The position numbers and the translations under genes were made by a program. This document shows, in pieces, positions 5,774 through 39,761 of a DNA stretch of 60,245 nucleotides. Within the stretch, counting starts at the first letter, position 1. Every line of letters begins with the position of its first letter. The notes under the pieces were generated by a model. The model was not told the DNA's origin. It did no database searches and saw nothing but the letters and a program-made list of their open reading frames with translations. The stretch covers positions 1 to 60,245 of the forward strand of contig JBBDKX010000038.1 of assembly GCA_040879145.1 (NCBI GenBank). The letters run 5' to 3'. The stretch is from Candidatus Spechtbacterales bacterium (GTDB taxonomy: Bacteria; Patescibacteriota; Minisyncoccia; Spechtbacterales; 2-12-FULL-38-22).

Positions 5774-7084
5774 ATGAAATTGGGCATTAAATTTTTCTTA
5801 ATTTTTGCAGTGTTGGTATCTGTTGCCGGTTTTTTTGTTGTAGAAGATGTCTCTGCTCAAGGGCAGTATTATTGCCAAATGAGTACTGCGGGGTGTGTAT
5901 TAGACCCGGGAATATCTCCAACCTGTCAACAGGGATATACATATGACTGCGGTCAATTCACAACGCTTTCCTCTTGTTTTAATAATCCACACACTTGTGA
6001 AATAGCAGGCAATCAATTTTCCTGTAATTACGATTTCGGAAGAAGTACATGCAATATAGACAGTAACAACAGCACGTGTGACACAGGTAAATCAGATAAT
6101 TGTTCCAACTGGAATAATGACCCCGCAGGATGTGAAAACGCTTTTGGCACATGCGTAGTAGGAATTCCCCCTGGTGAGGACTGCATGGTAACCTTCCCTG
6201 ACCCATGCTACGACGGAACAGGAGAACACTCATGCATAGCTTATGATGATTCCGGTACGGTTGGAATTTGCCAGCCAAATCCTTGTGAATCTACGGCACA
6301 GTGCCATGGAGGATATGAATGCCTTAGTGGAACATGTCGCCCGGGAGGTTCAAAGGCCCCGCTTGGAGTAAATGAAAAGACATGCATATGGGATACGCTT
6401 TATGGAAGGTGTGTACCTACAGGTACATGCAGGGCGGGGTATGAGGGTTACACTTTTGCTGAATGTAGTGCGTATCCCACCGAAGAAGAGTGTACGGCAG
6501 TACCTAACACAAGCTGTGATTTAATAGCTGAGTTCGGTGGAGAAGACTGTTTCGCGCGTTGCATAGAAGATCCCAATAATACCACCGCAGACCCTGTACG
6601 ACCAGGGGCAAACGACATATGCAATGCTAAGTGTAAAACAAATTTCAAACGATGCGATACAGACGGGGATTGTAAGTTTTTAATAGGGGAGGGTTGGAAG
6701 TGTATTCCAAACGATGTCACAGGAATGGGTATATGCCAATTTGAGCCTGATAAGATTTGTAATGCCGGAGGATTATTGCCCTGTGGAGGAACAGGATGCC
6801 CCTGCCAGCTTTGCGATGTATTTATTGTAATAAACAGAGTGGTAGATTTGCTTCTCTTTACAATAGCGCCCATACTTGTATCTATAATGGTTATAGTGGG
6901 TGGATTCTTTGTTATGACATCACGCGGTGCCGGGCAATTACGAAAAGGTAAGGAATTTATAAAGTGGGCCATTCTTGGATATTTATTAATGCTAACAGCA
7001 TGGGTAATTGTAAACAGCATACTTACTGTATTAGATCTGGCCACATGGGTTGGCGCAGGGGATTGGTGGGACCCAAACTGTTAA
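5774..7084 (+). CDS. Secreted Cys-rich protein with C-terminal TrbC/VirB2-like two-helix pilin module
   Basis: It has a signal peptide MKLGIKFFLIFAVLVSVAGFFVVEDVSAQ and about 40 Cys by hand count. The C-terminal hydrophobic hairpin has a short basic loop (GGFFVMTSRGAGQLRKGKEFIKWAILG), like the modules at 26635-32598. Confidence 0.55.
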   Translation: MKLGIKFFLIFAVLVSVAGFFVVEDVSAQGQYYCQMSTAGCVLDPGISPTCQQGYTYDCGQFTTLSSCFNNPHTCEIAGNQFSCNYDFGRSTCNIDSNNSTCDTGKSDNCSNWNNDPAGCENAFGTCVVGIPPGEDCMVTFPDPCYDGTGEHSCIAYDDSGTVGICQPNPCESTAQCHGGYECLSGTCRPGGSKAPLGVNEKTCIWDTLYGRCVPTGTCRAGYEGYTFAECSAYPTEEECTAVPNTSCDLIAEFGGEDCFARCIEDPNNTTADPVRPGANDICNAKCKTNFKRCDTDGDCKFLIGEGWKCIPNDVTGMGICQFEPDKICNAGGLLPCGGTGCPCQLCDVFIVINRVVDLLLFTIAPILVSIMVIVGGFFVMTSRGAGQLRKGKEFIKWAILGYLLMLTAWVIVNSILTVLDLATWVGAGDWWDPNC

Positions 7085-10627: not shown

Positions 10628-10708
10628 ATAACTATGCATTCACATTCTGTGCTAAAATGTATTTAAGCTGAAAAAGTTAAAATACTTCGTGAAGCGAAGT
10701 GAAGGAAC

Positions 10709-12268: not shown

Positions 12269-12269
12269 A

Positions 12270-20085: not shown

Positions 20086-22044
20086 ATGATGGGCTTATTA
20101 AACCCTCTAAAAAATAATCTAAAAAGACCTTCTCTCAAAAAGGGGTATTATTTGGTGTTACTCCTCTTTTTAGCAACTCCTAAATTTGCTCATGCAAACT
20201 TTTTCCTTGACGCCATAGAGAGGGCTGTTTTAGAGATGGGGTTCTTTCTTATAGGTGGAGCTGTAAGCATACTCTTCTTTATAATAAACTCTGTAATCTA
20301 TACCGCTGTGTGGCTTGCAAGATATATTGCTGAAATGGCAATAAGCCTCTCCCTTTCAATGCCATACACAAGCGGAGATGTCTTTAATGCGGGGTGGCCC
20401 GTTATGCGAGACCTGGCAAACATGGGTCTTATACTAATACTTGTCGGCATAGGCGTCGGCACAATGCTTAACCTTAAGCTAAACAAAGACCGCCTCGCGA
20501 TGTTTTTCCTGGTTGCACTGCTAATAAACTTCACAAATGTAATTACGGGGATAGTTATAGACTTTAGCAATATTATTGGAAGTGTTTTCTTTAATGCCGC
20601 GCAAAACAGCCTGAGCGCCCTCATAGGAGTGTCGCCCTTTGATGTCGCCCTGCAAGCTGGAAGAGAAACGGCACAAACCCTGGAAACCCTGGGAAGCGCG
20701 GAGGAATTTGCCAGCGGAATGATAGGGTTGATAGCCGGTCCTCTTATAACAAGCGTACTTGGAATTATTCTATTTTTTGTATTCATGCTCTTAACGGCGC
20801 TCTTTATAGGAAGAATATTGGCGCTAATGCTTTTAGTTATACTCTCGCCCGTGGCATTTCTCGGACTTATATGGAGCAGTGGAAAGATGCGACAGCTTTG
20901 GAACAAGTGGTGGGATACATTTTTACAGTGGGCGCTTATCGCGGTACCGATGCTCTTTTTTCTGTGGCTTGCCGGTATATTCCTTAATGAAGGAGCGGGT
21001 TACTGTACAGCGAGTCTTCCAAGCGGAGCGGAGCCAATAGAAGAAGCTATAGGATTAGGTGTACTGGATAGCGAGGGTGGGTTTGTGTGTAGGTCTATGC
21101 AATCCTTCCTCGCAATAGGCGCGTTGATTACAGGGGTTGTTATGAGTTTTAAAACAAGCGCGGCCGGAAGCAAAATGATTATAAGCAGAGCACAGCGATT
21201 CCAAAAATGGGGCACAAGCAAAGTAAGGCAGGCCGCCACAGCCCCCGGAAGAGCAGCGGGAAGAGTTGTAAAAAGAGAAAGCGCGAGAACAGTGGGGGCA
21301 GCTGGCACAAGAATAGCAGGATCAAAAGCCGCAAAGGTTCCCGTTATGGGCGGTGCCTTCAGAAGTGCGGGAAGGAGGTTGCAGGGATTTGAAGGAAAAC
21401 AAAGAACAGAGTGGAGAAAACATGAAAAAGATTATACCGGAATGACGTGGGATCAATTACAGGCTCACATAAAAACAGAGAAGGACCCTGATAAATTGGC
21501 TGCTATTATGAATCTGGCAGGTAGAAATCACGCCGACGATCTTGATTCCGCTATTCGAAACAATACAATAGATGACAAGAAAATCAAATCTTATCTAAAT
21601 ATGGCCCAATTTAGAACAACGGAAAAAGGTGAGAATCTACAAGATGCATGGATAAAAAATAATCCCCATCATCTTAAAAAGCATTTAGGAAAAACGGATA
21701 CAGACGTAAGAACAAAAACAGAAAGACTTTCGGCAAATGATTTATACAATCTAACGCTTTCAGCAATCAATGAACGGCATGTTGTTGAAGGTGTAATAAA
21801 AAATGATGACGCAAAAGTGAAGCAATTAAGACATGTTATCAACAAAGTTTCTAAAACAAATAATACTGCTATGAGTACCAACCTAAAAACAAACCTAAAA
21901 AATGCTATAATAGGCAGTTTCAATACCCTTGGACCAAATTCATCCACTCAGAACATATTAACTGAGCTTGACAATGCTGGGGGAAGATGGAAGGAGCTTA
22001 AAAATGCTTTAGAAAATGATCCTGATTTTGCAGGAATACTATAA
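20086..22044 (+). CDS. VirB6/TrbL-like polytopic T4SS membrane protein with basic hydrophilic C-terminal third
   Basis: 652 aa with about 8 or more hydrophobic helices in the first ~380 aa, followed by a Lys/Arg-rich soluble tail. The call rests on topology, size and its position at the head of a VirB3/VirB4 block. Confidence 0.45.
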   Translation: MMGLLNPLKNNLKRPSLKKGYYLVLLLFLATPKFAHANFFLDAIERAVLEMGFFLIGGAVSILFFIINSVIYTAVWLARYIAEMAISLSLSMPYTSGDVFNAGWPVMRDLANMGLILILVGIGVGTMLNLKLNKDRLAMFFLVALLINFTNVITGIVIDFSNIIGSVFFNAAQNSLSALIGVSPFDVALQAGRETAQTLETLGSAEEFASGMIGLIAGPLITSVLGIILFFVFMLLTALFIGRILALMLLVILSPVAFLGLIWSSGKMRQLWNKWWDTFLQWALIAVPMLFFLWLAGIFLNEGAGYCTASLPSGAEPIEEAIGLGVLDSEGGFVCRSMQSFLAIGALITGVVMSFKTSAAGSKMIISRAQRFQKWGTSKVRQAATAPGRAAGRVVKRESARTVGAAGTRIAGSKAAKVPVMGGAFRSAGRRLQGFEGKQRTEWRKHEKDYTGMTWDQLQAHIKTEKDPDKLAAIMNLAGRNHADDLDSAIRNNTIDDKKIKSYLNMAQFRTTEKGENLQDAWIKNNPHHLKKHLGKTDTDVRTKTERLSANDLYNLTLSAINERHVVEGVIKNDDAKVKQLRHVINKVSKTNNTAMSTNLKTNLKNAIIGSFNTLGPNSSTQNILTELDNAGGRWKELKNALENDPDFAGIL

Positions 22045-22744: not shown

Positions 22745-23185
22745 ATGGCACAATATCCCGTACCACAATTTATAGACAGGGAAACAAGACTTGTAGGCCC
22801 GCTAACAGTTCGGCAGATGATAATATTCGGCATAGATGCCGCGGTTTTATTTGTGCTTTGGTTTGTTTTAAATAAAATTACATTTATTTTTGCCGCCATA
22901 GTACTCACAAGTGCCGCCATAATACTTGCGTTTATAAAGATAAACGGACAACCACTAACAACTATTGTATTCTCTCTTCTAAACTACTTTCTACAACCGA
23001 GGCTGTATTTATGGGGAAAACAAGAAGATGTTGTTCAAAAAAAACCGAAGGGCGGACTATTTGATAAAATAGTGGGAGCGGGAACAGAAAAAAAAACGGC
23101 ACAGTCTTACGAAGTGCCCGAAGAGGCATCCAAAGAGCCGAGTGTTAGTGAAATAAAAGACGTAGCGAAATTGCTCGATGAGTAA
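22745..23185 (+). CDS. PrgI/VirB3-like small T4SS membrane protein
   Basis: 146 aa. YPVPQFIDRETRLVGPLTVRQMIIFGIDAAVLFVLWFVL plus a second TM match the PrgI/TcpE-type pattern. It sits immediately upstream of VirB4. Confidence 0.5.
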   Translation: MAQYPVPQFIDRETRLVGPLTVRQMIIFGIDAAVLFVLWFVLNKITFIFAAIVLTSAAIILAFIKINGQPLTTIVFSLLNYFLQPRLYLWGKQEDVVQKKPKGGLFDKIVGAGTEKKTAQSYEVPEEASKEPSVSEIKDVAKLLDE

Positions 23186-23323: not shown

Positions 23324-23974
23324 ATGCCTTCAACAGCAACAACACAAAGTTTTATACCAATAGACAACATCCGAAACGATGTCGTTGTTGTTAAGGGCGG
23401 AGAACTTAGAGCCATACTCCAGGTATCAAGTGTCAACTTTGCCCTAAAAAGCCATGACGAGCAGGAAGCTACCATATACCAATACCAAAACTTTCTTAAC
23501 TCTTTGGATTTTCCCATACAAATACTGGTAAACTCCCGCATGATGAATGTTGATGAGTATGTAGGAACAATACAGGCGATGGAAGCCAAGCAACGTTCCG
23601 ACCTTCTAAAAATGCAGACACAAGAATATGTAAAATTTATACAGCGTTTTGTGCAGGAGGCAAACATAGTCTCCACAGACTTTTATCTTATAGTGCCTTT
23701 CAGTTTAATAGACGTGGCAACAACACAGGGGGGAGCAAATGAAAGAATGAAAAGTCTTATAGGAAAACAAAGTCAACTGGGAACGATGGAGGCCGAAAAA
23801 TTCTTGTACTTCAAAGGACAGTTGATGCAGAGGGTAGACTTTGTTGCGAGTGGTCTTCATAGAATGGGTATATCTGCAAGCATGATGACAACGGAGGAGT
23901 TGGTTTCTCTTTTTTGGAGTATATATAACGGGGGAGACCTCAGAAAACGCGGTGCGATAAAACCAATGTTTTAA
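23324..23974 (+). CDS. VirB4/TrbE N-terminal domain encoded as a separate ORF
   Basis: 216 aa. IPIDNIRNDVVVVKGGELRAILQVSSVNFALKSHDEQEATIYQYQNFLNSLDFPIQILV resembles the CagE/TrbE/VirB4 N-terminal region. It ends with its own TAA stop. Confidence 0.5.
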   Translation: MPSTATTQSFIPIDNIRNDVVVVKGGELRAILQVSSVNFALKSHDEQEATIYQYQNFLNSLDFPIQILVNSRMMNVDEYVGTIQAMEAKQRSDLLKMQTQEYVKFIQRFVQEANIVSTDFYLIVPFSLIDVATTQGGANERMKSLIGKQSQLGTMEAEKFLYFKGQLMQRVDFVASGLHRMGISASMMTTEELVSLFWSIYNGGDLRKRGAIKPMF

Positions 23975-24399
23975 AACAGCTTTTAGCTTCTGGCTTTCAG
24001 CTTATTAGCTTATGATAAATTCTTATAAAGAACTAAAGGTTTGGCAACGCGCAATGGAATTAGTTGTTGCTGTATATGAACTAACCGAAAAATACGCAAA
24101 AGAAGAAACTTATGGATTAACGGCACAAACAAGAAGATCGGTAATTTCTATACCTTCAAATATAGCTGAAGGTAGGCACAGGTCCACAAGAAAAGATTTT
24201 ATAAACTTTTTGATAATAGCTTATGCATCTGGCGCAGAATTAGAAACACAAATAGAAATAGCAAAACGATTACCAAAAACCAAACAATTAAACTATGTAA
24301 AAGTTGATAATCTTTTGGAAGAAGTTATGAAAATGTTAAACATAATGATAAAAAAGTTAAAAGCTAGTAGCTAATAGCTATAAGCTATAAGCTAAACAC
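23975..24399 (+). mobile_element. IVS-like cassette: four-helix-bundle gene flanked by mutually complementary NNAGCTT heptamer arrays
   Basis: The left array is at 23977-24011 and the right array at 24361-24399. The reverse complement of the right array aligns with the left at roughly three quarters of positions by hand. The cassette sits exactly between the two VirB4 pieces. Confidence 0.4.
24012..24374 (+). CDS. Four-helix-bundle protein of the 23S rRNA intervening-sequence protein family
   Basis: 120 aa. YKELKVWQRAMELVVAVYELT, LTAQTRRSVISIPSNIAEGRHRSTRKDFINFLIIAYASGAELETQIEIA is the family pattern as I recall it. Confidence 0.8.
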   Translation: MINSYKELKVWQRAMELVVAVYELTEKYAKEETYGLTAQTRRSVISIPSNIAEGRHRSTRKDFINFLIIAYASGAELETQIEIAKRLPKTKQLNYVKVDNLLEEVMKMLNIMIKKLKASS

Positions 24400-26229
24400 A
24401 TGCCTGAAAACCCACTAAGTGACCAACAACCGAATAACCAACCTCAAAAGGGTCCTCAACCCTTCCAGCAGGCGTACCAGGTGGTGCAGCAGTCTGAACA
24501 AGTGGACAAGCGCAAGCGACTTCTTGATATAATAGCTCCGCCCGCACTTGAGGTTACAGCAAACAATGTAAAGTTGGGGAATACATTCGTCCGTACTCTT
24601 TTTGCTTTCTCTTACCCCAGATATCTGGCAGAAAACTGGTTAAGTCCTATTATAAACATAGATAGAACAGTAGATGTTTCTATATTTATAGAGCCGGCTG
24701 ATACAGCTACCATTATGAAACAGCTTCAAAACCAGTTAACCAGTGTTGAGGCGGAAATGATGGAAAGAGAAGAAAAAGGCCTTGTGCGCGACCCGCTGCT
24801 TGAAGCGGCTTATGAGAACATTGAAGATTTGCGGGACAAAATGCAGACATCCGAAGAAAAAATGTTCAAGTTTGGGCTCTATATTATAATCTACGCAAAA
24901 AGCGAGAAGGAGGTAAACGAGATAGAAAATGAGCTTCGCTCTATTTTAGAAAGCCGTCTTGTATATGTAAAACCGGCCGTGTATCAGCAAAGAGAGGGTT
25001 TTAACTCCGGCCTACCGCTGGGGCTTAATTATCTTAACCTGACAAACAGCATGAACACTTCGCCCCTATCTTCCACCTTTCCTTTTGTTTCGTTTGACCT
25101 AACAATGGATGAGGGAATTCTTTATGGAATAAACCGGCACAATTCAAGTCTTATTCTGTTTGACAGGTTCTCTCTTGAGAACGCCAACACTGTAATACTC
25201 GGAAAATCAGGCGGAGGTAAGAGTTACACCGTAAAACTGGAGGTGCTCCGCTCTATGATGTTTGGAGTGGACGTTATAGTAATAGACCCCGAAAACGAGT
25301 ACCAATACTTGGCAGAAACCACGGGCGGAAGTTTTTTCCGTGTATCTTTAACCAGCGGAGACGAGATAAACCCCTTTGATCTGCGGGAGCCCCAGGAGGA
25401 TGAAAAACCTGAAGAGCTTTTTCGCGCAAACATAATAACCCTTATCGGGCTTTTAAAGATAATGTTGGGAGACATGACGCCGGAAGAAGAGAGTGTTTTA
25501 AACGAGGCTATAATCCAAACATATGACTCGCGTGATATATCTCCGGAAACACCCAGATATTGGGAAAAAACACCACCGTTAATGCAGGACCTGCAAACCG
25601 TACTGCAAAATATGGAGGGAGGCGCAAGTTTAGCGCAACGCCTTCTTAAATACACGGATGGCGTATACTCAGGATTTTTAAATAAGCAAACAAATGTAAG
25701 CCTTGAAGGACAGCTTGTTGTGTTTAATATTCGGGATATGGAAGATGAACTTCGTCCCGTAGCTATGTACCTTATAATTAACTATGTATGGAATGCTATA
25801 AGGCGCACACTAAAGAAAAGAATGCTCGTAATTGACGAGGCGTGGTGGATGCTTCAACATCATGAAAGCGCGGCATTTCTTTTTGGTATCGCCAAAAGAG
25901 CAAGAAAATACTACCTCGGGGTTACAACAATAACCCAGGACATAGAAGACTTTTCTACGAGCGACTATGGAAGAGCGATTATCACAAACTCATCCCTGCA
26001 GATATTAATGAAACAGTCTCCGGCAACAATAGACCAACTCCAAAGAATATTTAACCTTACAGATGAAGAAAAATATCTTCTATTAGAAGATAATGTAGGG
26101 GAAGGACTTTTCTTTGCGGGAACAAAACATGTCGCAATAAAAGTTATAGCCTCTTACATAGAAGACCAGATAATAACTTCGGATCCCGAACAACTCTTAC
26201 AAATAGAAGAGTCTAAGGATCGGTTATAA
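24400..26229 (+). CDS. virB4: VirB4-type T4SS ATPase (central and C-terminal part)
   Basis: 609 aa. It has IAPPALEV...RTLFAFSYPRYL, Walker A ILGKSGGGKSYT, Walker B RMLVIDEAWWML and the downstream motif GVTTITQDIEDF. Confidence 0.85.
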   Translation: MPENPLSDQQPNNQPQKGPQPFQQAYQVVQQSEQVDKRKRLLDIIAPPALEVTANNVKLGNTFVRTLFAFSYPRYLAENWLSPIINIDRTVDVSIFIEPADTATIMKQLQNQLTSVEAEMMEREEKGLVRDPLLEAAYENIEDLRDKMQTSEEKMFKFGLYIIIYAKSEKEVNEIENELRSILESRLVYVKPAVYQQREGFNSGLPLGLNYLNLTNSMNTSPLSSTFPFVSFDLTMDEGILYGINRHNSSLILFDRFSLENANTVILGKSGGGKSYTVKLEVLRSMMFGVDVIVIDPENEYQYLAETTGGSFFRVSLTSGDEINPFDLREPQEDEKPEELFRANIITLIGLLKIMLGDMTPEEESVLNEAIIQTYDSRDISPETPRYWEKTPPLMQDLQTVLQNMEGGASLAQRLLKYTDGVYSGFLNKQTNVSLEGQLVVFNIRDMEDELRPVAMYLIINYVWNAIRRTLKKRMLVIDEAWWMLQHHESAAFLFGIAKRARKYYLGVTTITQDIEDFSTSDYGRAIITNSSLQILMKQSPATIDQLQRIFNLTDEEKYLLLEDNVGEGLFFAGTKHVAIKVIASYIEDQIITSDPEQLLQIEESKDRL

Positions 26230-26230
26230 T

Positions 26231-26635
26231 ATGACTGAGAAAATAAACAAAAGAATAAAAGAGGCGGCAGCAAAAAAAGCTGAGCAGGAGGAAAAAGACC
26301 CTTACGAAAATGTACCAGGCTTGGGCAGTCCTGAGGCATTTTTGTGGCTTATGTGGGCCTTTATACTTGATATGATGGGGGTATTAAGCGCCATATTAAT
26401 ACTTGTGTTTGGTGTGGGTCTCGCAATCTCTATTGCTGTTGATATTTTAGCAATGGGCACAATAGGCGTATATATGTACTTTAAAACAAAACACATGCCT
26501 ACAGGGAAAAGAGTGGCGCGTGCGGCAAAAAGAACGGGTTTGGTGTCCGCAATTGAAGCTGTACCCGTACTTGGTGACATAGCGTTTTCATGGACCATTT
26601 ATCTTTTTATGGAATTTAGCAAAGGAAAAGCATAA
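26231..26635 (+). CDS. Small three-TM membrane protein (T4SS-like locus)
   Basis: 134 aa with a charged N-terminus followed by three hydrophobic helices. It is tightly packed between neighbours, and its stop overlaps the next gene's start (ATAATG). Confidence 0.4.
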   Translation: MTEKINKRIKEAAAKKAEQEEKDPYENVPGLGSPEAFLWLMWAFILDMMGVLSAILILVFGVGLAISIAVDILAMGTIGVYMYFKTKHMPTGKRVARAAKRTGLVSAIEAVPVLGDIAFSWTIYLFMEFSKGKA

Positions 26636-27732
26636 TGAAACTCTACATCAAAAAATCAGTTATAGGGTTCTTGTTTTTACTGATATTTTTACTATTTAGT
26701 GCTCCTTCTTTCGCATTAGCCCTTGAGCTTGACTACCCGACAATTCCAACACCAATAGGGCCTCTAGACTTAGACACCATAACAGACGAGGGGGGGTTTA
26801 CCGTAGCTGGTCTTATTGTGTTTATTTATGGAGCCGCTATTTGGATTGCCGGAATACTTGCTTTTATTTCTCTTGTGTACGTGGGGTTTGTTTACATACT
26901 TTCCGGCTCAGGCATGGTGGGGCGCGGAAAGGCCCTCCGCAGATTAAAAAATGTGCTGTGGGGACTGGTTATATTATTATTCGTTACAGCACTTTTAAAT
27001 GTGGTAAATCCTGAAATTTTAAACTTAGAAGACTCTCTTGTTGTAGCTGTTGCGCCTAACGATAAAACATATCAGGAGGTAGAGTTTGAAGGGTTTAAGT
27101 TTGAAGGATTTTTTGTTGACAATGGTAGTGGAGGCGGTGGCACTGGAGATGGTGAGGAGCCTGTCATATCTTGCCAAGAACAGTGTTTGGCTAAATGTGG
27201 TGGCATGCCGGCTTGCGAAACAGAGTGTTTTAAACTTCCCCCTTGTCCTGAGTTAGCATGTCCAGTTCTGCGGGTTACAAGCTCTTTTACTGCGTACTGT
27301 TACGACAGGGGAAGCGCGCGCCACAACGGGCACGATGTTATGGCCAACGAAGGAACTCCTATATACGCAATGGAGGCGGGAACACTGGACAGGGTGGGGT
27401 GGATAGATTCCGGAGGGTGTCGTTTGTGGATAATTGGCACTCAATCTGGAAGAGCTTATGCACATTTACACATGGGTACTACATTAGATTGTTCTGATGC
27501 ATTCGGTTCTGGAATAAGGGAGGGGGCAACTGTTGTTGCAGGGCAAACACTGGGATATGTGGGCACAACATACAATGGACGTGCAGATGGTACTGTTGCA
27601 CACTTACACTTAACAATTGTTAAGCCCAGCGGAAGTGAAGAATGTAGTCCACCACCCCTCAGTGGAAATTATGGCGGACCAACAATGGACGGAGCTCCTC
27701 TTTTTAAACAAGCTGGGTGTCCGTTTACATAA
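26635..27732 (+). CDS. Pilin-module protein fused to a C-terminal M23 metallopeptidase domain
   Basis: In order: signal peptide, LELDYPTIPTPIGPLDLD, TM hairpin (AIWIAGILAFISLVYVGFVYILSGSGMVGRGKALRRLKNVLWGL), Gly-rich linker, a Cys cluster, then M23 motifs HNGHD, AHLHM and GTVAHLHL. Confidence 0.65.
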   Translation: MKLYIKKSVIGFLFLLIFLLFSAPSFALALELDYPTIPTPIGPLDLDTITDEGGFTVAGLIVFIYGAAIWIAGILAFISLVYVGFVYILSGSGMVGRGKALRRLKNVLWGLVILLFVTALLNVVNPEILNLEDSLVVAVAPNDKTYQEVEFEGFKFEGFFVDNGSGGGGTGDGEEPVISCQEQCLAKCGGMPACETECFKLPPCPELACPVLRVTSSFTAYCYDRGSARHNGHDVMANEGTPIYAMEAGTLDRVGWIDSGGCRLWIIGTQSGRAYAHLHMGTTLDCSDAFGSGIREGATVVAGQTLGYVGTTYNGRADGTVAHLHLTIVKPSGSEECSPPPLSGNYGGPTMDGAPLFKQAGCPFT

Positions 27733-27763
27733 TAGGTTTATAATTTAAGACCCATACTTACTT

Positions 27764-28513
27764 ATGCAGCCAACAAACTCCACAACAAAGAAAAAGATAG
27801 TGTTTTTACTTATAGTATCTTTAGTGCTTGTTATGTTGTTGTTTTTCATACAACTATTAACAAACCAGGGCACAACAGATCCGCGTGACGAAGAAAGAAC
27901 TGTGCCTCCTGGAACAATTGGTAATGAGGAGTATTTAATAGAGAATCCGGAACTACCAAAAACAAGTTGGCAAAGGAAGGTAGAGATACAAAAAGAAGAT
28001 GGTATGCAAACCGTAACAAATTTTTATGACGGATACCGCATTGATGTATCAAGTGATTGGGAAATTGTAGAAGAAGTAAGGGGGGGGCTGGGTGGTTTAA
28101 ATTTACTTTACGGACAGCATGAAGAAGATATAAACGAATACGAAACAGAACAACACATACACGACGGTCTCGTTCTTAGTGTTGTTGTTTTTGAAAATGA
28201 AGAAGGGTTTAACCTAATAGACTGGCTGGCCCGATCAGACAATCATGGAAGTTTTCTGTTTGGAGCCGAACTTAGGGAAGTGCCAAGTGATTTATACAAA
28301 ATTTATAAAACCGAAAGGCCCCTAACAGAAGACCGGTTCATAGATGGCAAGATAGTAGATGCTCAAATAGAAGACACGCTATCCTCTAAGTACATAATAA
28401 AAGATCCTAAAATAGACTCGGTTTATGTTTTAATTTGCACTATATATAACAATGTAAACACACTAGTTCCTCTTTGCGAAGAAGCTATGCAAGGGTTTAA
28501 CATACTAAAATAG
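27764..28513 (+). CDS. Bitopic hypothetical protein (VirB8-like size and topology, unverified)
   Basis: 249 aa with one N-terminal TM and a ~210-aa extracytoplasmic domain. There is no motif-level evidence. Confidence 0.35.
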   Translation: MQPTNSTTKKKIVFLLIVSLVLVMLLFFIQLLTNQGTTDPRDEERTVPPGTIGNEEYLIENPELPKTSWQRKVEIQKEDGMQTVTNFYDGYRIDVSSDWEIVEEVRGGLGGLNLLYGQHEEDINEYETEQHIHDGLVLSVVVFENEEGFNLIDWLARSDNHGSFLFGAELREVPSDLYKIYKTERPLTEDRFIDGKIVDAQIEDTLSSKYIIKDPKIDSVYVLICTIYNNVNTLVPLCEEAMQGFNILK

Positions 28514-28516
28514 GCT

Positions 28517-29500
28517 ATGAATATTTTGAACAAATTTCGTTCAAACACAGTTGGTATACTTTTTTTTGTTATACTTTTTAGCATTATCACGCCTCACGCA
28601 GATGCGTTAACCTTGGAATTAAACTATCCGGAGATTCCAACGCCCACAGGGTCTATAGACTTAAACTGTCTGGAAATAGGGCTTTGCGACCTTAGTATCG
28701 CGCTGTTGCTTGTTGTCTTTTATGGAGCAAGTGTGTGGATAGCAGGTATACTGGCTTTTTTGGCTTTAATTTTTGCAGGAATGTCCTATATTATAAGCGG
28801 GGCCAGCCCCGGCGCGCGCGCACGCGCTAATGAAAGATTTATAAATGTTCTGTGGGGACTTTCCATTTTACTCCTTGCAAATGCTATAATATATACAGTA
28901 AACCCACAACTAATAACCGGGTTTGAAGACCCTTTGTTTCCGACAGCATCTTCAGGGTCTACAGAGTATGAAGAGATATACTTTACAAGCGAAGGGTTGT
29001 TAATAAGAGGGGGCTCAAGCGGTACAGGAGGAACAAGTGGAGGTGGGGGTGGAGGAGGCGGTACACCCTCATCCTGTAGTAGTGCAGAAGTTGTGGAAAA
29101 TGGCACAAATGAAACCTACAACCATGAAGGGTCCTCAACCGCAGAGATACAAAACACAGTATCCCAACAACTACGGGCAGAGCTTTCAGCTGGTGGATTA
29201 TCAACAGCACAAGTAGAAGATTACGCAAACTACTTCTTCACCACAGTTATACCTTGTGAAAGCACCTGGGTTCCTCACGCAGAAAACGAAGGGGGAACAA
29301 ATTGTATGGCAGTCGGGTTGTACCAGTTAGAGGATAACAGGTATGGAAAACAGGCTTGTAGGGCAGAGTATCACAGGTGGCACCACTGGCAATGCGAAAC
29401 ATCACATGCTGTAGATAGGTTTTTTGAAATAAGAAACAACAGACCAGGGTGCTCGGGTTGGGAGTACTGGGAATGCGCAAAAACAAGGTGGACCTGTTAG
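28517..29500 (+). CDS. Pilin-module protein fused to a Cys-rich lytic-transglycosylase-like domain
   Basis: It has LELNYPEIPTPTGSIDLN, the TM hairpin SVWIAGILAFLALIFAGMSYIISGASPGARARANERFINVLWGL, and a poly-Gly linker. The C-terminal CESTWVPHAENEGGTNCMAVGLYQL resembles the ES...GLxQ signature of SLT-type enzymes. Confidence 0.5.
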   Translation: MNILNKFRSNTVGILFFVILFSIITPHADALTLELNYPEIPTPTGSIDLNCLEIGLCDLSIALLLVVFYGASVWIAGILAFLALIFAGMSYIISGASPGARARANERFINVLWGLSILLLANAIIYTVNPQLITGFEDPLFPTASSGSTEYEEIYFTSEGLLIRGGSSGTGGTSGGGGGGGGTPSSCSSAEVVENGTNETYNHEGSSTAEIQNTVSQQLRAELSAGGLSTAQVEDYANYFFTTVIPCESTWVPHAENEGGTNCMAVGLYQLEDNRYGKQACRAEYHRWHHWQCETSHAVDRFFEIRNNRPGCSGWEYWECAKTRWTC

Positions 29501-29521
29501 ACCTTAAAACAATCACACAAC

Positions 29522-30031
29522 ATGCCACAAAAAACCAAAATAATACTGTTCTTACTATTTGTGACAACATCGCTTGCTCTTGTGTTTTGGGGGGCCTACA
29601 AAACAAGGGATATTATTGATAATGAGCCTGCGAGTATAACAAATACAACTGGCTCACCAATACAAATACCTGGGGAGACTGTGCAAAAGTTTAATGAAAA
29701 AGGAAACGAGTCACAAGATGCTAAAATTTTAAAGCAAAATCTTATATCCCCCCTGCAGGGAAATTCGGGAACCATACACCAAACAACTGAATATCGTATA
29801 GACTACATACCTCATCCGGACACATTTATGGTAGAAATACTTGCTGCAGACTTTAAAAATGCCCAGGACTCAGTTTTTGGATGGTTTTTAGCTCAAGGGT
29901 TTTCAAGAAGCGACGTGTGTAGTATGAAAATACTATTCTACTTAAGTGGTGCGGTGAAAAATTACTATCAACAAAATGAGCAAACAATAATTTTTAACCC
30001 CGTTTTTGAGCACTGTGATGCAGATTTTTAA
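29522..30031 (+). CDS. Bitopic hypothetical protein
   Basis: 169 aa with an N-terminal TM (IILFLLFVTTSLALVFWGA). No motif is recognised. Confidence 0.35.
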   Translation: MPQKTKIILFLLFVTTSLALVFWGAYKTRDIIDNEPASITNTTGSPIQIPGETVQKFNEKGNESQDAKILKQNLISPLQGNSGTIHQTTEYRIDYIPHPDTFMVEILAADFKNAQDSVFGWFLAQGFSRSDVCSMKILFYLSGAVKNYYQQNEQTIIFNPVFEHCDADF

Positions 30032-30034
30032 ACC

Positions 30035-31630
30035 ATGAGAATGAGTATTTCTAAAAAAACAACTTTTATACTGCTGCTCTCTCTGTTCTTAACAGGATTC
30101 TTTGTAATTTTAAATACCAGCCCCGCTTCAGCCCAAACTTCCTGTACACGTTGTAGTAATAATTATAGTTTTTCTTACGCAGAATGGACGGCAGTTACTG
30201 CGTGCGACCCCTACGGAGGCGAACCTGTTACCTACACTCAGGATAATTCTTGTACGGGACATAACTGTGGTAATGGGGCTTGTGAAAACGATGGATTCAA
30301 CTTTGAAACCTCAACCAACTGCCCTTCTGACTGTTCTTCATCCACATCAACACCCAGCGACACGTGCCAACGGTGTAGCCTTAACTATCCGGGATGCTGG
30401 TCTACGTGGGACAATATTGATGATAGCGACTGTGTAGCTCCCACAACAACAGATGAAATAAGCTCTGTAGAATACACCCCCACAGGATGCACAACCGGAG
30501 AGCCTATAGACAGAAGGTGTGCGGAAGGGCCTGCATGCGGTCGCTGTAGCCTTAACTATCCGGGATGTTGGGCAGTGTGGATAGATATTGATGAAAATGG
30601 ATGCACGGCTCCGAACTCTTTAAATGAGAATATAACTGTTATATATACTCCAGCGGGGTGTCAGTCCGGAAATGACTTTGACCGACGTTGCAACTTTGAC
30701 AGATTGAATGTAAATTATCCAATTGTACAAACACCGAACGGTCCCTTAGACATAAACAGCCTATACACAGGGGGTAATGTTACAATGGCGACCATTGTCT
30801 TGTTTGCATACGCGGCCTCCATATGGGTCGCGGGAATTCTTGCTTTTGTGGCTCTCATTTACGCTGGCTTTATATTTATACTATCGGGCGGAAATCCAGG
30901 CAAAAGAGTTAAAGCCAAAAAACAATTTACCGATGTTTTGTGGGGACTGTTGGTGGTTCTTTTGGTGCCTGTGATAATGAACTACATAAACCCCACAAGC
31001 GCTCTTTTGCGCGACCCCAATCTTTTGGGTGTAGATGGTAGTGACAAAGAGTTTCAATTGCCCTTATTTAGCCAGGAGGGAGATTTCGACATGGCGGCGT
31101 GCTTAAATGCGGGCAACACAACAGATTATTGTCTTGATACCTGCATAGAAGGGAGTGGGGATGATTCCATCCTAAGCTGTTCAATAGGAGCTGCGAATTG
31201 GATAATGAGCAAATGTGAATCCTCCGGAACAGCTACTAGTACTTGTGTGGATCAGTGTACAAACGAACTAATAAGCACGGGGTGGTATAACGATGCAACA
31301 AGAACAGATGCGGAATCCATTTGCGCAGGCACGGGGTCAAGTGGAGGCACTGGGGAAGGAGGGACATTCAGCACCACAGAAGAAGATAATATGTTTGTCT
31401 CATGCGCTACCATACTAGGAATTACAAACTCAAGCCTTGTGCCTTTCAGTATAAACTCAGAGCGTAACCAAGTTTTATGTGACGCACCAAGCACAGCTTC
31501 GTGGGACAACAATACCTGGTGTAGTTCTTGCTCTGATAACGGTGGAGATATTACTTCCTGTAACAATTATATAGGCAACACGTCGGGCGGTTGCTGTGAC
31601 AGGTTTAATGGATCATGCCCAACAAGTTAA
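30035..31630 (+). CDS. Cys-rich repeat protein with an internal pilin module
   Basis: It has a signal peptide and two clear ~57-aa repeats (C.RCSLNYPGCW...DRRC) preceded by a degenerate copy. These are followed by LNVNYPIVQTPNGPLDIN, the TM hairpin SIWVAGILAFVALIYAGFIFILSGGNPGKRVKAKKQFTDVLWGL, and a Cys-rich C-terminal region. Confidence 0.55.
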   Translation: MRMSISKKTTFILLLSLFLTGFFVILNTSPASAQTSCTRCSNNYSFSYAEWTAVTACDPYGGEPVTYTQDNSCTGHNCGNGACENDGFNFETSTNCPSDCSSSTSTPSDTCQRCSLNYPGCWSTWDNIDDSDCVAPTTTDEISSVEYTPTGCTTGEPIDRRCAEGPACGRCSLNYPGCWAVWIDIDENGCTAPNSLNENITVIYTPAGCQSGNDFDRRCNFDRLNVNYPIVQTPNGPLDINSLYTGGNVTMATIVLFAYAASIWVAGILAFVALIYAGFIFILSGGNPGKRVKAKKQFTDVLWGLLVVLLVPVIMNYINPTSALLRDPNLLGVDGSDKEFQLPLFSQEGDFDMAACLNAGNTTDYCLDTCIEGSGDDSILSCSIGAANWIMSKCESSGTATSTCVDQCTNELISTGWYNDATRTDAESICAGTGSSGGTGEGGTFSTTEEDNMFVSCATILGITNSSLVPFSINSERNQVLCDAPSTASWDNNTWCSSCSDNGGDITSCNNYIGNTSGGCCDRFNGSCPTS

Positions 31631-32598
31631 AGATTAAAAAACTGTTTTTTTTAAACATCCTTATTTTCATTGGGTTATTTTTTGTTTTAAACATATCAAA
31701 CGCCCAAACACTAAATCTTGACTACCCGCCGCTTAGGGTGCCGGGAGGGATTTTTGATTTAAACGACGCTTATGAGTCGGGAAAAGTCGGATTAAGACAA
31801 GTAATAATTCTCTTTTATGTACTTACTCTTTGGTCTTCAGGGATTTTAGCTTTTGTACTACTTATCTACACTGGACTTGTTTACATAATATCCGGAGGTA
31901 AGCCGGCGAAAAGAAAAGAGGCATTTCAAAAGTTTAAAAACGTCTGGATAGGAGTTGCGGTGCTTTTATTCTCCTTTTTCTTTTTAAATATTTTAAATCC
32001 CGGCATAACAAATTTGGACCTTTACGTTTTTCTATCTACCACAGGTGGCGGCACAGACTACAATTTTGATACAGATATTGCTTTTGCTCTGCCTAAAAGC
32101 CAGGCCTTAACGGCAGAGGAGGCCGGGACCTTTACTTGCCAATGGACAGGCGCTGACTGTGTCGCGAATATTAATAACTGCAACGAGGGCTTCAGTCCAG
32201 ACTGCCATTTTGGCACCAACCACGACAGCGCCAGTTATTCTGATTTTTGCACAGAAGCACAAGACAATGGACAAGCGTTCGTTTGCGTAAAAGAAGCCTC
32301 AGATATTTCTTCCTCCGAAGGATCTGGTGAGCCCGAACCACCCCCCGGTGCTGATGGTATAGACTCTACTGAAGAGGGCGTCTTAAGACAAGATTGTACT
32401 AATTATTCTATAGGAGCAAGATATGACACAGAAGATGTAGCTGGAAACAGCTATTTCTACTGCGATACAGGGATTTTAACAGACACGTTTGCGACCAGCT
32501 GGCGCAACAAATGCTTGAATGATTTCTCAGGACATGAAAGCGGTGTTTTAGATTCAAATAATGAGGCCAGGCTGTATTGCGGTTACTTAGTAAACTAA
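31615..32598 (+). CDS. Pilin-module protein with Cys-rich C-terminal domain
   Basis: It has LNLDYPPLRVPGGIFDLN plus LWSSGILAFVLLIYTGLVYIISGGKPAKRKEAFQKFKNVWIG, then a Cys-rich acidic domain. Its start overlaps the upstream gene by 16 nt. Confidence 0.5.
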   Translation: MPNKLKIKKLFFLNILIFIGLFFVLNISNAQTLNLDYPPLRVPGGIFDLNDAYESGKVGLRQVIILFYVLTLWSSGILAFVLLIYTGLVYIISGGKPAKRKEAFQKFKNVWIGVAVLLFSFFFLNILNPGITNLDLYVFLSTTGGGTDYNFDTDIAFALPKSQALTAEEAGTFTCQWTGADCVANINNCNEGFSPDCHFGTNHDSASYSDFCTEAQDNGQAFVCVKEASDISSSEGSGEPEPPPGADGIDSTEEGVLRQDCTNYSIGARYDTEDVAGNSYFYCDTGILTDTFATSWRNKCLNDFSGHESGVLDSNNEARLYCGYLVN

Positions 32599-36662: not shown

Positions 36663-36784
36663 AAATCAAGACTTTACTTTATCAACCTTGTTTAGGTATC
36701 ATTAGTATAACTTAAAAAATATTATAACAACTTTCATCTCCTGTGGAATTTTATAGCTTATTTCACACGGGGCTTGGGAACCTT

Positions 36785-38143
36785 ATGGATGAACAAGAAC
36801 TCTGGCAATCTGTGCTAAACGAAATAGAACTACAAACATCAAAGGCCAACTTTATTACGTGGTTTAAGAATACTTATATTGCAAACAAAAAAAATGGCGT
36901 TGTTACTGTGGCTGCGCCTAACGGGTTTAGCAAGGAGTGGTTGGAAAATAAATACGGAAAACAAATACTTAAATTTTTGCGCGCGCAAGAAAACGAAATA
37001 AAAGAGATAAGGTATATTATAGAAAACAAAAAACCTCAAAACATCCTCACGGATACAAAAAGGAAAGATGGTATTCCTGACATAGAAGAGTCTCAGTTAC
37101 AATTTGAAGAATTTAAAATAGATAAAAACACAAACCTTAACCCCAAATACACCTTTGAATCTTTTGTTGTAGGTCCATCTAATGAATTAGCGCATGCCGC
37201 CGCTTTTTCTATTTTCAAAAAACCCGGGCTAACCTACAATCCGCTTTTTGTTTATGGCGGTGTTGGTTTGGGCAAAACACATCTTTTACAGGCATTGGGT
37301 AATAAGTTTTCCTCTAAGGGTATATCTGTTGTGTACTTAACATCGGAGAGATTTACGAGTGAGTTTATATCTTCCATACAAAACCAAGACATAGATGGTT
37401 TTAAAAATAAGTATAGAAAGAAGGATGTACTTATTATAGATGACATACAGTTCCTAGCAGGCAAAGAACAGACTCAGGAAGAATTTTTCCACACATTCAA
37501 CGCGCTCCATGAACAAAACAAGCAGATAATACTTAGCTCTGATAGGCCTCCAAAAGCAATACCCACACTGGAGGAGCGTTTAAGAAGCCGTTTTGAAGGG
37601 GGCATGCTTGTTGATATAGGTTATCCCGATTATGAAACAAGGGTAGCTATACTAAAAACAAAAATAAAAGATAGAAACATATCTTTAACAGATGAGGTTA
37701 TTCACTATATAGCAAGTAATATACAAAGAAACATACGGGAGCTGGAAGGAGCTTTAAACTTAGTTGTTGCTTCTTCGCGTTTATACAACAACGAAGTGGA
37801 TTTAGAACGCGCCAAAAAAATACTGTCTCACATCACTCATAAACCAAGTAAACCCATAAGCTATAAAAAAATATTAAAAGCAGTTTGTAATTTTTATGAA
37901 GTAGAAGAAGAAGAGCTTTTAGGAAAAAACAGAAAAAGAGACATAGTGTTACCAAGACAGGTGGCGATGTATTTAATGCGTACAGAACTTAAAACTTCTT
38001 ACCCAACAATAGGGGACAGGTTTGGAGGTAAGGACCATACAACAGTCATACATGCATGTGATAAAATAGAGTACCAACTAAAAGATAATACTACTTTTGA
38101 GGAGGAATTTAATTTTCTAAAACAACAGCTATACGTTGAGTAA
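36785..38143 (+). CDS. dnaA: Chromosomal replication initiator DnaA
   Basis: It has Walker A GGVGLGKTHL, DVLIIDDIQFLAGKEQTQEEFFHTFN, and the C-terminal DNA-binding region VLPRQVAMYLMRTELKTSYPTIGDRFGGKDHTTVIHA. The ATG at 36785 is preferred; the track start is a GTG. Confidence 0.95.
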   Translation: MDEQELWQSVLNEIELQTSKANFITWFKNTYIANKKNGVVTVAAPNGFSKEWLENKYGKQILKFLRAQENEIKEIRYIIENKKPQNILTDTKRKDGIPDIEESQLQFEEFKIDKNTNLNPKYTFESFVVGPSNELAHAAAFSIFKKPGLTYNPLFVYGGVGLGKTHLLQALGNKFSSKGISVVYLTSERFTSEFISSIQNQDIDGFKNKYRKKDVLIIDDIQFLAGKEQTQEEFFHTFNALHEQNKQIILSSDRPPKAIPTLEERLRSRFEGGMLVDIGYPDYETRVAILKTKIKDRNISLTDEVIHYIASNIQRNIRELEGALNLVVASSRLYNNEVDLERAKKILSHITHKPSKPISYKKILKAVCNFYEVEEEELLGKNRKRDIVLPRQVAMYLMRTELKTSYPTIGDRFGGKDHTTVIHACDKIEYQLKDNTTFEEEFNFLKQQLYVE

Positions 38144-38183
38144 ACCAAAAAGAATAAGTTGTTGAATACTATGTATACAGTAG

Positions 38184-38335
38184 TGTGGAAAACTGTGGAT
38201 AAAAAGTATTTTTAAAACATCTATTTTTAAAAATACTTTTTATCCCCCACAAATCCACAAGACAACGTTCCTGTTTCCCACCCTTTTTACTCTCCTAATT
38301 TGTTTAGTTTAAAGAGTAAAACAACTGTTTCCACA
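38184..38335. promoter_or_regulatory. Second DnaA-box cluster with AT-rich palindrome between dnaA and dnaN (candidate oriC core)
   Basis: The boxes are TGTGGAAAA (38184-38192), TGTGGATAA (38194-38202, perfect), TTATCCCCC (38240-38248), AAATCCACA (38251-38259) and GTTTCCACA (38327-38335). A 16-bp perfect AT-only inverted repeat joins 38202-38217 and 38225-38240. Confidence 0.65.
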
Positions 38336-38363
38336 AAAAACTAAACTTCTAAATACAATAAAT

Positions 38364-39476: not shown

Positions 39477-39477
39477 A

Positions 39478-39759
39478 ATGTGGATAGACCTTTCTTATTT
39501 AATAAAAAAAAGAGAAAGTCATTATGAGGACAATAAAAATGATGCCCAGTTGCCTGTAGTTTGGAGCGAGACAATAAAAAACGTTCATCCGGAACTCGCT
39601 TCTTTTACTCAGTATAAAGAAATAAAAAAAGACACACTTTATATTCAAGTAAAAGACAGTTTTTTATTAAGTGAATTAGAGGCGCGCAAAGAGGATATAA
39701 GGTATGAAATAAATAAAAAAATAGAAAAACCTATTAGTCTTATAAGATTTACAATATAA
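39478..39759 (+). CDS. DUF721 (DciA-like) protein
   Basis: 93 aa directly after dnaN. The pattern VWSETIKNVHPELASFTQYKEIKKDTLYIQVKDSFLLSELE resembles DUF721. Confidence 0.45.
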   Translation: MWIDLSYLIKKRESHYEDNKNDAQLPVVWSETIKNVHPELASFTQYKEIKKDTLYIQVKDSFLLSELEARKEDIRYEINKKIEKPISLIRFTI

Positions 39760-39761
39760 AA

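Follow-up and report, generated by a model that had tools for sequence, protein, structure and literature searches.

Predicted VirB2-like pilin hairpins joined to hydrolase-like and cysteine-rich domains in a type IV secretion operon of Candidatus Spechtbacterales

Five predicted membrane proteins, designated A to E, are encoded on a stretch of DNA of 60,245 nucleotides (nt) from a Candidatus Spechtbacterales bacterium (assembly GCA_040879145.1, contig JBBDKX010000038.1, positions 1 to 60,245 of the forward strand). The whole 60-kb stretch is called the window here. The proteins share a hairpin of two hydrophobic helices, to which different domains are joined. According to profile matches and gene surroundings, A to E are assigned to the VirB2-like pilins of family PF18895 and would be parts of an origin-proximal, monoderm-type type IV secretion system (T4SS) of Patescibacteria.

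Pilin array and shared module

Positions 26635-32598 hold six tightly packed open reading frames (ORFs) on the + strand, in the order A, X249, B, Y169, C, and D, of which X249 and Y169 are small membrane proteins without the hairpin module. An earlier reading of the DNA, made from the sequence only, had placed four + strand ORFs with a common module here. These are A to D, and alignment in MAFFT recovered the module as a segment of about 97 amino acids (aa). The fifth paralog, E, lies apart from them.

26635..27732, + strand: paralog A, 365 aa; signal peptide, module, Gly-rich linker at aa 164-175, Cys-rich stretch, and Peptidase_M23 at aa 229-330
26722..27012, + strand: module of A, aa 30-126; YP..P.G..D cap, helix 1, basic loop, helix 2, and NP
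28517..29500, + strand: paralog B, 327 aa; signal peptide, module at 28613-28906, Gly-rich linker at aa 165-183, and SLT-like tail
30035..31630, + strand: paralog C, 531 aa; signal peptide, Cys-rich head, internal module at 30704-30994 (aa 224-320), and Cys-rich tail
31615..32598, + strand: paralog D, 327 aa; signal peptide, module at 31711-32001, 4-Cys mini-domain at aa 173-197, and tail without a family match
5774..7084, + strand: paralog E; signal peptide, Cys-rich part of about 320 aa, and hairpin at the C-terminal end (aa 346-422)

The module starts with L-x-(L/V)-x-Y-P...P-x-G..D, continues with two hydrophobic helices that flank a basic loop, and has N-P at its end. Twenty-four columns are invariant in the alignment of A to D, namely Y5, P6, P11, G13, D16, Y36, W41, and G44-F48 in the first half, and L51, G55, I59, S61, G62, R68, A71, V78, G81, L86, N96, and P97 in the remainder. 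The motif strings quoted in the sequence-only reading are a consensus and are not literal in all of the proteins (C has LNVNYPIVQTPNGPLDI and D has LNLDYPPLRVPGGIFDL), but the module itself is conserved. When 402 six-frame ORFs of the window were scored with a hidden Markov model (HMM) of the module, A to D were each recognized with E-values of 1e-45 to 1e-47, and there was no further match among these ORFs. The similarity of the four modules is far beyond chance.

Pairwise identity of the modules is 37-49% at the aa level and 47-57% at the nt level. Codons of identical residues are 36-59% identical, and synonymous sites are saturated. Since identity of DNA and codons is this low relative to that of the proteins, and the tails are unrelated, A to D are old paralogs. 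A recent tandem duplication was considered and is ruled out by the nt identity and the saturation of synonymous sites.

A broadened family HMM added E with an E-value of 8e-9. This paralog sits outside the range 26635-32598, about 20 kb from the T4SS operon, and contains 40 Cys residues; its hairpin comes last, which is the reverse of the layout in A, B, and D.

Between 198 and 239 aa follow the hairpin in A to D. The tails had been described as completely divergent, and they are unrelated in BLASTP, except that A and B share about 59 aa just past the NP (34% identity, E-value 7e-4). A Gly-rich linker directly after the module had been ascribed to the array; it is clear in A and B, is reduced to TTGGGTDY in D, and does not directly follow the module in C, where a Gly-rich stretch is found at aa 432-443 instead. 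As had also been described, the module of C is internal, with two Cys-rich repeats of about 52 aa before it and a tail with 7.6% Cys after it.

Family of the hairpin

The PF18895 T4SS_pilin model scored 27.3 bits with full-length B, 32.6 bits with C, and 26.8 bits with D, all above the cut-off of 26.6. A (20.1 bits at full length, 24.4 bits when only its module is scored) and E (24.4 bits) are just under it. When modules of the family were scanned alone (n = 51, E-value < 0.01), PF18895 was found in 50 of the 51 and PF04956 TrbC/VirB2 in five; in A to D there was no PF04956 match at E-value ≤ 0.1. Matches to the NCBIfam entry "Mbov_0395 family pilin-like conjugal transfer protein" were found too, but they are weak. 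The N-terminal cap YP..P.G..D is conserved and lies outside the 71-position PF18895 model. On these profile scores, the module is filed under PF18895 and not as a demonstrated member of TrbC/VirB2. That the hairpin is of pilin type and more than a generic signal anchor, as the sequence-only reading had proposed, is borne out by the PF18895 matches of the proteins and isolated modules and by a T4SS operon with genes for PrgI, VirB4, and a VirB6-like protein.

For the mature module of A, AlphaFold with 51 family sequences gave a confident model, with a mean predicted local distance difference test score (pLDDT) of 82. Two long antiparallel helices (28-60 and 65-95) are predicted, with a small N-terminal beta-hairpin (8-15) and a short helix ahead of them. 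The top fold match of this model in the PDB, found by Foldseek, is 8dfu, a conjugation pilin of Aeropyrum pernix, with a template modelling (TM) score of 0.54 (query) and 0.63 (target), a root-mean-square deviation of 2.6 Å over 71 columns, an E-value of 2.9, and a probability of 0.51.

Fused domains

Relatives from the sequence searches are given P numbers below, and loci on other contigs L numbers. The tails had been described as M23, SLT-like, and Cys-rich domains; M23 stood in A and the Cys-rich character in C and D, while the SLT match in B is under the Pfam cut-off.

In A, Peptidase_M23 (PF01551) was recognized with an E-value of 8e-11 and 42.4 bits (cut-off 28.7). Its HxxxD motif (HNGHD, aa 230-234) and HxH motif (HLH, aa 323-325) are intact when aligned with five M23 proteins, and the tail is predicted to be an active-looking M23 peptidoglycan endopeptidase. 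Full-length orthologs of A are P0022 (46% identity) and P0014.

The tail of B matches SLT (PF01464) with 12.9 bits against a cut-off of 21.3, over profile positions 14-52 only. Its orthologs P0173 and P0049 reach 18.2 bits in the same motif region, still under 21.3. The motif ES...GLYQ is at aa 247-274 of B, and its Glu-Ser/Thr and GLYQ are invariant in five orthologs. Comparison of the SLT-like tail with VirB1 in hhalign was not significant, and a search of PDB sequences with a profile of the B tail gave no match even at E-value ≤ 10. In an AlphaFold model of full-length B, computed with a 10-sequence alignment, the mean pLDDT is 50, the tail is below 50, and only the hairpin is confident. 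Judged by the motif and the partial match, the tail of B is probably lytic transglycosylase-like.

The two Cys-rich repeats of C, read from the translation, are at aa 111-162 and 168-219. The ortholog of C in locus L001 is a protein of 421 aa with a shorter head and the same tail. D has relatives with the same hairpin and 4-Cys mini-domain and with other ends, as P0065 carries VanY (E-value 4e-8) and P0041 a domain of about 200 aa without a family match. The disulfide-rich domains of C, D, and E probably bind something.

The 4-Cys mini-domain has the pattern [FYW]xCx[WYF]..C..C..G..C. It is coded once in D (aa 173-197, positions 32131-32205) and twice in E (aa 32-59, positions 5867-5950, and aa 82-110, positions 6017-6103). 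It was found in 16 of 150 representatives of the family, before or after the hairpin, and 20 shuffles of these proteins gave 0 matches.

Product names at NCBI reflect one part of such proteins only, with one ortholog called just "peptidoglycan DD-metalloendopeptidase" and P0173, the ortholog of B, just "pilin".

T4SS operon and neighbouring genes

The other genes of the T4SS region are listed here.

20086..22044, + strand: polytopic membrane protein, candidate VirB6/TrbL-like channel subunit (TrbL_4, E-value 0.0018; NCBIfam MMCAP2_0566, E-value 1e-4; both below cut-offs)
22745..23185, + strand: PrgI/VirB3-like small membrane protein (PF12666 PrgI, E-value 1.6e-10, 41.8 bits, cut-off 27)
23324..23974, + strand: 216-aa protein, probably TraC-like/TrsD-like partner, without a Pfam match of its own
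24012..24374, + strand: 120-aa 23S rRNA-intervening sequence protein (PF05635, E-value 8e-36; weak bAvd-like similarity)
24400..26229, + strand: VirB4-type ATPase of the monoderm CD1110 type (NF045971, E-value 1e-112, 377.8 bits, cut-off 325; P-loop_TraG, E-value 2e-29)
26231..26635, + strand: 134-aa membrane protein directly after VirB4, without signal peptide and without a Pfam or NCBIfam match
27764..28513, + strand: X249, single-pass membrane protein with an N-terminal hydrophobic segment, without a Pfam match
29522..30031, + strand: Y169, single-pass membrane protein of a second family with an N-terminal hydrophobic segment, without a Pfam match

Genes for PrgI, the TraC-like protein, VirB4, the 134-aa protein, A, X249, B, Y169, C, and D follow one another in series, either overlapping slightly or 0-37 nt apart. 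In L001 and L002, the matching position is taken by a 216-aa gene with a PF26593 TraC-like match, which in L002 is directly upstream of VirB4. The gene at 24012-24374 separates the TraC-like gene from virB4. As both are adjacent in L002, from a Spechtbacterales metagenome-assembled genome (MAG), this gene looks like an insertion into the T4SS operon. The 134-aa protein has an ortholog of 147 aa at the same position in L001 (32% identity, E-value 2e-22).

Orthologs of X249 follow the gene of the M23-carrying pilin in L001 (35% identity, E-value 6e-35) and L005 (45% identity, E-value 6e-76). Relatives of Y169 stand beside long pilin genes in L001 (46% identity, E-value 1e-52), L005 (E-value 6e-23), and, distantly, L004 (E-value 1.6e-4). 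X249 and Y169 alternate with the pilin genes in the window and are conserved partners of long-pilin arrays in other genomes. Possible roles for them are those of assembly factors, VirB8-like parts, or inhibitors.

About 4 kb separate the end of the array from dnaA. Downstream on the opposite strand are a polysaccharide-synthesis/flippase-family gene (Polysacc_synt) and then genes for Jag, YidC, YidD, and RnpA; past RnpA are dnaA (36743-38143) and dnaN. The same origin-proximal placement is reported for the T4SS of Patescibacteria (PMC12102498). No relaxase or coupling protein was recognized among the larger ORFs of the window that were scanned, and no phage genes were seen. No short pilin ORF was found in the 60-kb window or in four related loci, where ORFs of the family are all at least 297 aa long. 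In a promoter and terminator scan of the operon, the promoter count equalled the shuffle mean.

Genes elsewhere in the window code for a class A penicillin-binding protein (39762-42299, - strand), a stand-alone LysM-LysM-M23 hydrolase (15805-17010, - strand), and a PilB-type ATPase of the type II secretion system and type IV pilus (T2SS/T4P) kind (48169-49833, - strand) with its neighbouring genes. Because the penicillin-binding protein and the PilB-type ATPase with its neighbours are encoded, the organism has its own peptidoglycan and a separate type IV pilus system. G+C content is about 29% at 1-2000 and 38001-40000 and about 40% elsewhere in the window. The second of these stretches, which takes in dnaN and the sequence immediately beyond dnaA, is a possible marker of the replication origin.

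Relatives and distribution

The closest full-length relatives are coded in MAGs of Candidatus Spechtbacterales (phylum Minisyncoccota). One of them, GCA_033721955.1, has the same gene order of PrgI, TraC-like protein, VirB4, 147-aa protein, M23-carrying pilin, X, SLT-like pilin, Y, C-like, and D-like protein, and its locus then continues with the same origin-proximal genes. VirB4 is 88% identical between the two genomes and the pilin fusions 37-53%. When positions 24400-32598 of the window were compared with 2154-10093 of L001, identity was only 33-53% for the 134-aa gene, the pilin fusions, X, and Y, against the 88% of VirB4, so divergence is much faster downstream of the ATPase. Such fast divergence of the pilin fusions would be expected for exposed proteins that interact outside the cell.

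A search for the wider family, which the sequence-only reading had suggested together with a list of fused domains, was carried out with a profile over 1.84 billion cluster representatives. It gave 7560 clusters at E-value ≤ 1e-3 and 184 at E-value ≤ 1e-10, and the best 150 representatives were taken for a census. Among these 150, PF18895 was found in 131, TrbC in 20, M23 in 14, SLT in 4-5, and VanY and PKD in one each. A single hairpin is present in 84, and in 74 of them it is followed by at least 100 aa; in 22 of the 84 it is preceded by more than 60 aa, and only five are pilin-sized. The extra segments form at least 39 unrelated BLASTP clusters. Reuse of the hairpin as a carrier for different domains, which had been read from four ORFs, therefore holds across the family. 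The conservation is likewise not a private recent duplication, given the saturated synonymous sites, the same ordered paralogs in the Spechtbacterales MAG, and the 7560 clusters.

The remaining 66 of the 150 have tandem hairpins in one polypeptide and are called polypilins here. They count 2-12 hairpins by the module HMM and up to 17 by the broadened HMM, spaced by about 70-100 aa, with one N-terminal signal peptide each; examples are P0032 (1775 aa), P0013 (1147 aa), P0003 (552 aa), and P0011 (501 aa). Polypilins raise the separate question of how such proteins are produced or assembled; they might be cut into single pilins or might work as pre-linked units.

On L004, a distant contig of the candidate phyla radiation (CPR), three tandem long pilins of 354, 389, and 391 aa are coded at 8933-12359 beside ruvC. 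Their cap has the form W-x-[IV]-P..I-[SG]-IP..C....YC..PWIGEY. By eye, one of the tails is M15/VanY-like (H..D...HxH) and another is SLT-like (ES...GCFQIN).

Other searches gave less. A homologue search with the 4-sequence module profile had no match, and A and B alone gave few full-length relatives. A scan of genome contigs with the module gave one weak locus, L003, in a Verrucomicrobiales single-cell assembly (HMM E-value 8e-4), and a scan of metagenome contigs with a 12-sequence alignment gave no confirmed locus.

Topology of the hairpin

Signal peptides and topology, whose prediction had been proposed with the sequence-only reading, were judged by rule. A hydrophobic leader with an AxA-type cleavage site is present in all five proteins, and the hydropathy segments are those of a signal peptide and, after it, two hydrophobic helices that enclose a short basic loop. 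The loop between the helices contains 3-6 K/R across A to E, and the cap before helix 1 is acidic; in A there are five K/R and no D/E in the loop, and six D/E and no K/R in the cap. Under the positive-inside rule, this distribution predicts a cytoplasmic loop and a hairpin with its two ends outside. In the family, M23 is found after the hairpin in seven representatives and before it in six, and this occurrence on either side about equally often is compatible only with both ends on the same outer side. One domain cluster without a family match is also found on either side of the hairpin, and the Cys-rich composition of heads and tails fits an extracytoplasmic location. A fused domain, whether before or after the hairpin, would in this way be held outside the cell. 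In F-type and T-type pili, both termini of the pilin are on the outer surface.

Interpretation and alternative explanations

In the explanation that we favour, which seems probable though only slightly so, the hairpin is a pilin hairpin reused as a portable carrier linked to the T4SS, handled by VirB4, and built into a stalk or fibre. Each protein would be exported by Sec and its signal peptide cut off, after which the two helices would be membrane-embedded and the basic loop cytoplasmic. The ends of the hairpin would point outward, and the fused domain would thus be kept on the exterior, in many cases by a Gly-rich tether. In known systems VirB2 is dislocated from the membrane by VirB4, and the VirB4 machine would handle these hairpins like ordinary VirB2-type pilins, by extraction. 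They would then be incorporated into a T4SS stalk or a short pilus-like fibre, as its subunits or as a minority or tip fraction, and enzymes and binding domains would be carried through the bacterium's own wall towards the wall of the host cell. The outcome could be a wall-opening, VirB1-like function, and possibly attack on the host wall and adhesion. The role of anchor or display scaffold, which the sequence-only reading had given to the hairpin, is a functional one that we infer from sequence. Module identity of 37-49% beside unrelated tails argues that the hairpin is under more constraint than a plain membrane anchor needs.

Several points weigh against this explanation. The PF18895 score of A is under the cut-off, hhalign of the 51-sequence profile with VirB2 of pTi (Agrobacterium) and TraA of F gave probabilities below 1%, and a search of PDB sequences with the module profile gave no match even at E-value ≤ 10. 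The E-value of the 8dfu match is not significant, as is usual for a two-helix query, so the match agrees with a pilin fold and proves nothing. The hydrolase label of B depends on a sub-threshold SLT match and a motif, with a tail model that is unusable, and no VirB4 was found within 10 kb of the three long pilin genes of L004. Polymerisation and VirB4 handling of the long proteins are steps that we infer. A VirB2-type helical lattice might not have the steric room for a domain of 20-30 kDa on each subunit, and short pilins could be coded elsewhere in the genome, beyond the 60 kb.

The main rival is a pilin-derived two-helix anchor that stays in the membrane, where hydrolases equivalent to VirB1, PrgK, or CwlT cut the cell's own peptidoglycan near the T4SS, with no extraction by VirB4 and no fibre, and where the Cys-rich paralogs are ordinary surface proteins. 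This explanation accounts for the hydrolases and is possible, if rather unlikely. Monoderm T4SS operons normally encode a membrane-anchored wall hydrolase (PMC12102498, PMC8557374). The organism, with its class A penicillin-binding protein, makes peptidoglycan, and most Patescibacteria with VirB2 homologues are without a recognisable VirB1, a gap that would be closed by a fused hydrolase. A VirB2-type lattice would also have difficulty accommodating bulky cargo on all of its subunits. Such an anchor, however, has no need for a conserved extracellular cap, for a hairpin of two helices, or for some 24 invariant positions that are retained in paralogs whose tails are unrelated, and non-enzymatic Cys-rich domains on the same module in a fixed, conserved gene order are left unexplained. 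Moreover, there is no other pilin candidate in the locus, yet pilin genes are essential in the characterised system (PMC10633639). A different use of the enzymes is supposed when the hydrolase-carrying pilins are taken as antibacterial or host-directed T4SS effectors, with X249 (after A) and Y169 (after B) as immunity or inhibitor proteins that shield the producer's own wall, in pairs that would resemble X-Tfe/X-Tfi of the Xanthomonas killing T4SS. Some T4SSs are known to be antibacterial and to deliver wall hydrolases. The order of a hydrolase-carrying pilin and then a small membrane protein is kept for A-X249 in three genomes and for B-Y169 in two, and the N-terminal hydrophobic segment would place the bulk of X249 and Y169 on the same outer side as the enzymes. 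Relatives of X and Y, however, are also at the end of the L001 array, away from hydrolase genes; in L004 a Y relative comes after three pilins, and the one in L005 stands ahead of a pilin without a recognised enzyme. X249 and Y169 lack a Pfam match, and neither a coupling protein (T4CP) nor a relaxase was seen in the scan of larger window ORFs. Given the X and Y relatives away from hydrolase genes, this explanation is improbable.

It could further be argued that the hairpin is not a pilin at all, but a generic signal-anchor or low-complexity segment, or a cassette of prophage holin or signal-arrest-release (SAR) endolysin type, whose similarity comes from composition or recent duplication. Two-helix hairpins do draw spurious matches (FecCD, Cyt_bd_oxida_II, and MatE in this case), the sub-threshold score of A fits such a view, and a hydrolase with a membrane hairpin would superficially look like phage lysis genes. 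Against it, the module HMM is specific for the four ORFs, with values of about 1e-45 and no other match in the window; polar and aromatic residues (Y, P, W, R, N, P), and not hydrophobic ones only, are among the invariant positions; PF18895 is in 131 of the 150 closest representatives; and nt identity is as low as 47-57%. The specificity of the HMM and PF18895 in 50 of 51 modules rule out a generic signal anchor. A phage holin-endolysin cassette is ruled out by the setting in a chromosomal, origin-proximal T4SS operon, next to dnaA and syntenic with another genome. Chance, a generic anchor, and a phage lysis cassette are effectively excluded.

If the hairpin is a carrier handled by VirB4, a more far-reaching version can be drawn, in which the VirB2-like subunits of an "armed" fibre or stalk are themselves the cargo, each type of subunit bearing a different domain on its outer surface (M23, SLT, M15/VanY, or Cys-rich); such a machine would drill through the host wall and dock to it, and swaps of domains on either side of the hairpin would tune the host range. 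This version is doubtful. If true, it would give the essential T4SS a concrete function and explain why VirB1 and adhesins are apparently absent in most genomes. T4SS and pilin array are essential for epibiotic life in the sole Patescibacterium tested genetically (PMC10633639), and what the T4SS moves and how two cell walls are crossed is unsolved (PMC10633639, PMC11665869, PMC12857230). The enzyme-carrying form of the pilins could hint at the function of this essential system. Should a large branch of the pilins carry hydrolases and binding domains, the "missing" VirB1 and adhesin functions would not be missing, and HMM surveys that expect small pilins or a stand-alone VirB1 would overlook or misfile such fusions. 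The carrier role would also provide a testable hypothesis for the action of the T4SS at the host surface, and a hairpin with both ends outside, tolerating domains on either side, would be a natural display scaffold for experiments.

Comparison with known systems

An essential series of predicted pilins in a T4SS cluster was reported for Southlakia epibionticum (Wang et al. 2023, PMC10633639), and previous publications describe VirB2-like pilin arrays next to virB4 in Patescibacteria (PMC10633639; Quinonero-Coronel et al. 2025, PMC12102498). A 2025 review treats the pilins of Patescibacteria as the sole exception among monoderm T4SS and states that no pilus has been demonstrated so far, even for the short Patescibacteria pilins (PMC12857230); the role of the essential secretion system is called "completely unknown" in PMC11665869. 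In published surveys, VirB2-like genes are taken for small pilins, and VirB1-type hydrolases and adhesins are reported as mostly missing (PMC12102498). The literature searched, including the available parts of PMC10633639, PMC12102498, and PMC12857230, has no mention of pilins fused to enzymes or other large domains. The pilin array is thus known, and the enzyme-carrying fusion architecture appears to be undescribed within the literature searched. It appears to be a widespread, unremarked variant of the VirB2-like pilin array of Patescibacteria and not a new kind of system.

The published arrays of Patescibacteria (SEML1_0014-0019 in S. epibionticum) have in common with the window the PF18895 hairpin, the position next to virB4, and a monoderm-type T4SS near dnaA, and neither has a relaxase or coupling protein nearby. 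The characterised pilins, however, are pilin only, about 125-185 aa long (in S. epibionticum, genes of 381-417 nt where listed), whereas A to D are 327-531 aa. The wall hydrolases of the S. epibionticum locus, SEML1_0006 and SEML1_0007, are separate proteins, whereas in the window a hydrolase is fused to the hairpin.

The TrbC/VirB2/TraA pilins resemble the proteins of the window in the signal peptide, the two-helix hairpin with a short basic loop, and the VirB3-, VirB4-, and VirB6-like neighbours. Classical conjugative pilins are about 70-120 aa when mature and have no globular domains, whereas A to D carry them. The Pam pili of CPR bacteria, which were also considered, are an unrelated system assembled by donor-strand exchange. 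Minor pilins of T4P and T2SS with large globular domains follow the same logic of a conserved hydrophobic assembly module with variable outward domains, by which a fibre can present adhesins, but this is an analogy only, as they are unrelated proteins with a single N-terminal helix, processing by prepilin peptidase, and assembly by a PilB-type ATPase.

Also comparable are the VirB1 analogues of monoderm T4SS, PrgK of pCF10, TraG of pIP501, and CwlT of ICEBs1, which are wall hydrolases coded in T4SS operons and anchored on the outer side of the membrane. Lytic transglycosylase and peptidase types are both represented there and in the window, the former by the sub-threshold SLT-like tail of B. 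In PrgK, TraG, and CwlT, SLT is paired with CHAP or NlpC/P60 in a single protein that has a signal peptide or a single transmembrane helix of the ordinary kind. In the window, by contrast, a hairpin of the pilin family is the anchor, and M23 and the SLT-like domain belong to different paralogs.

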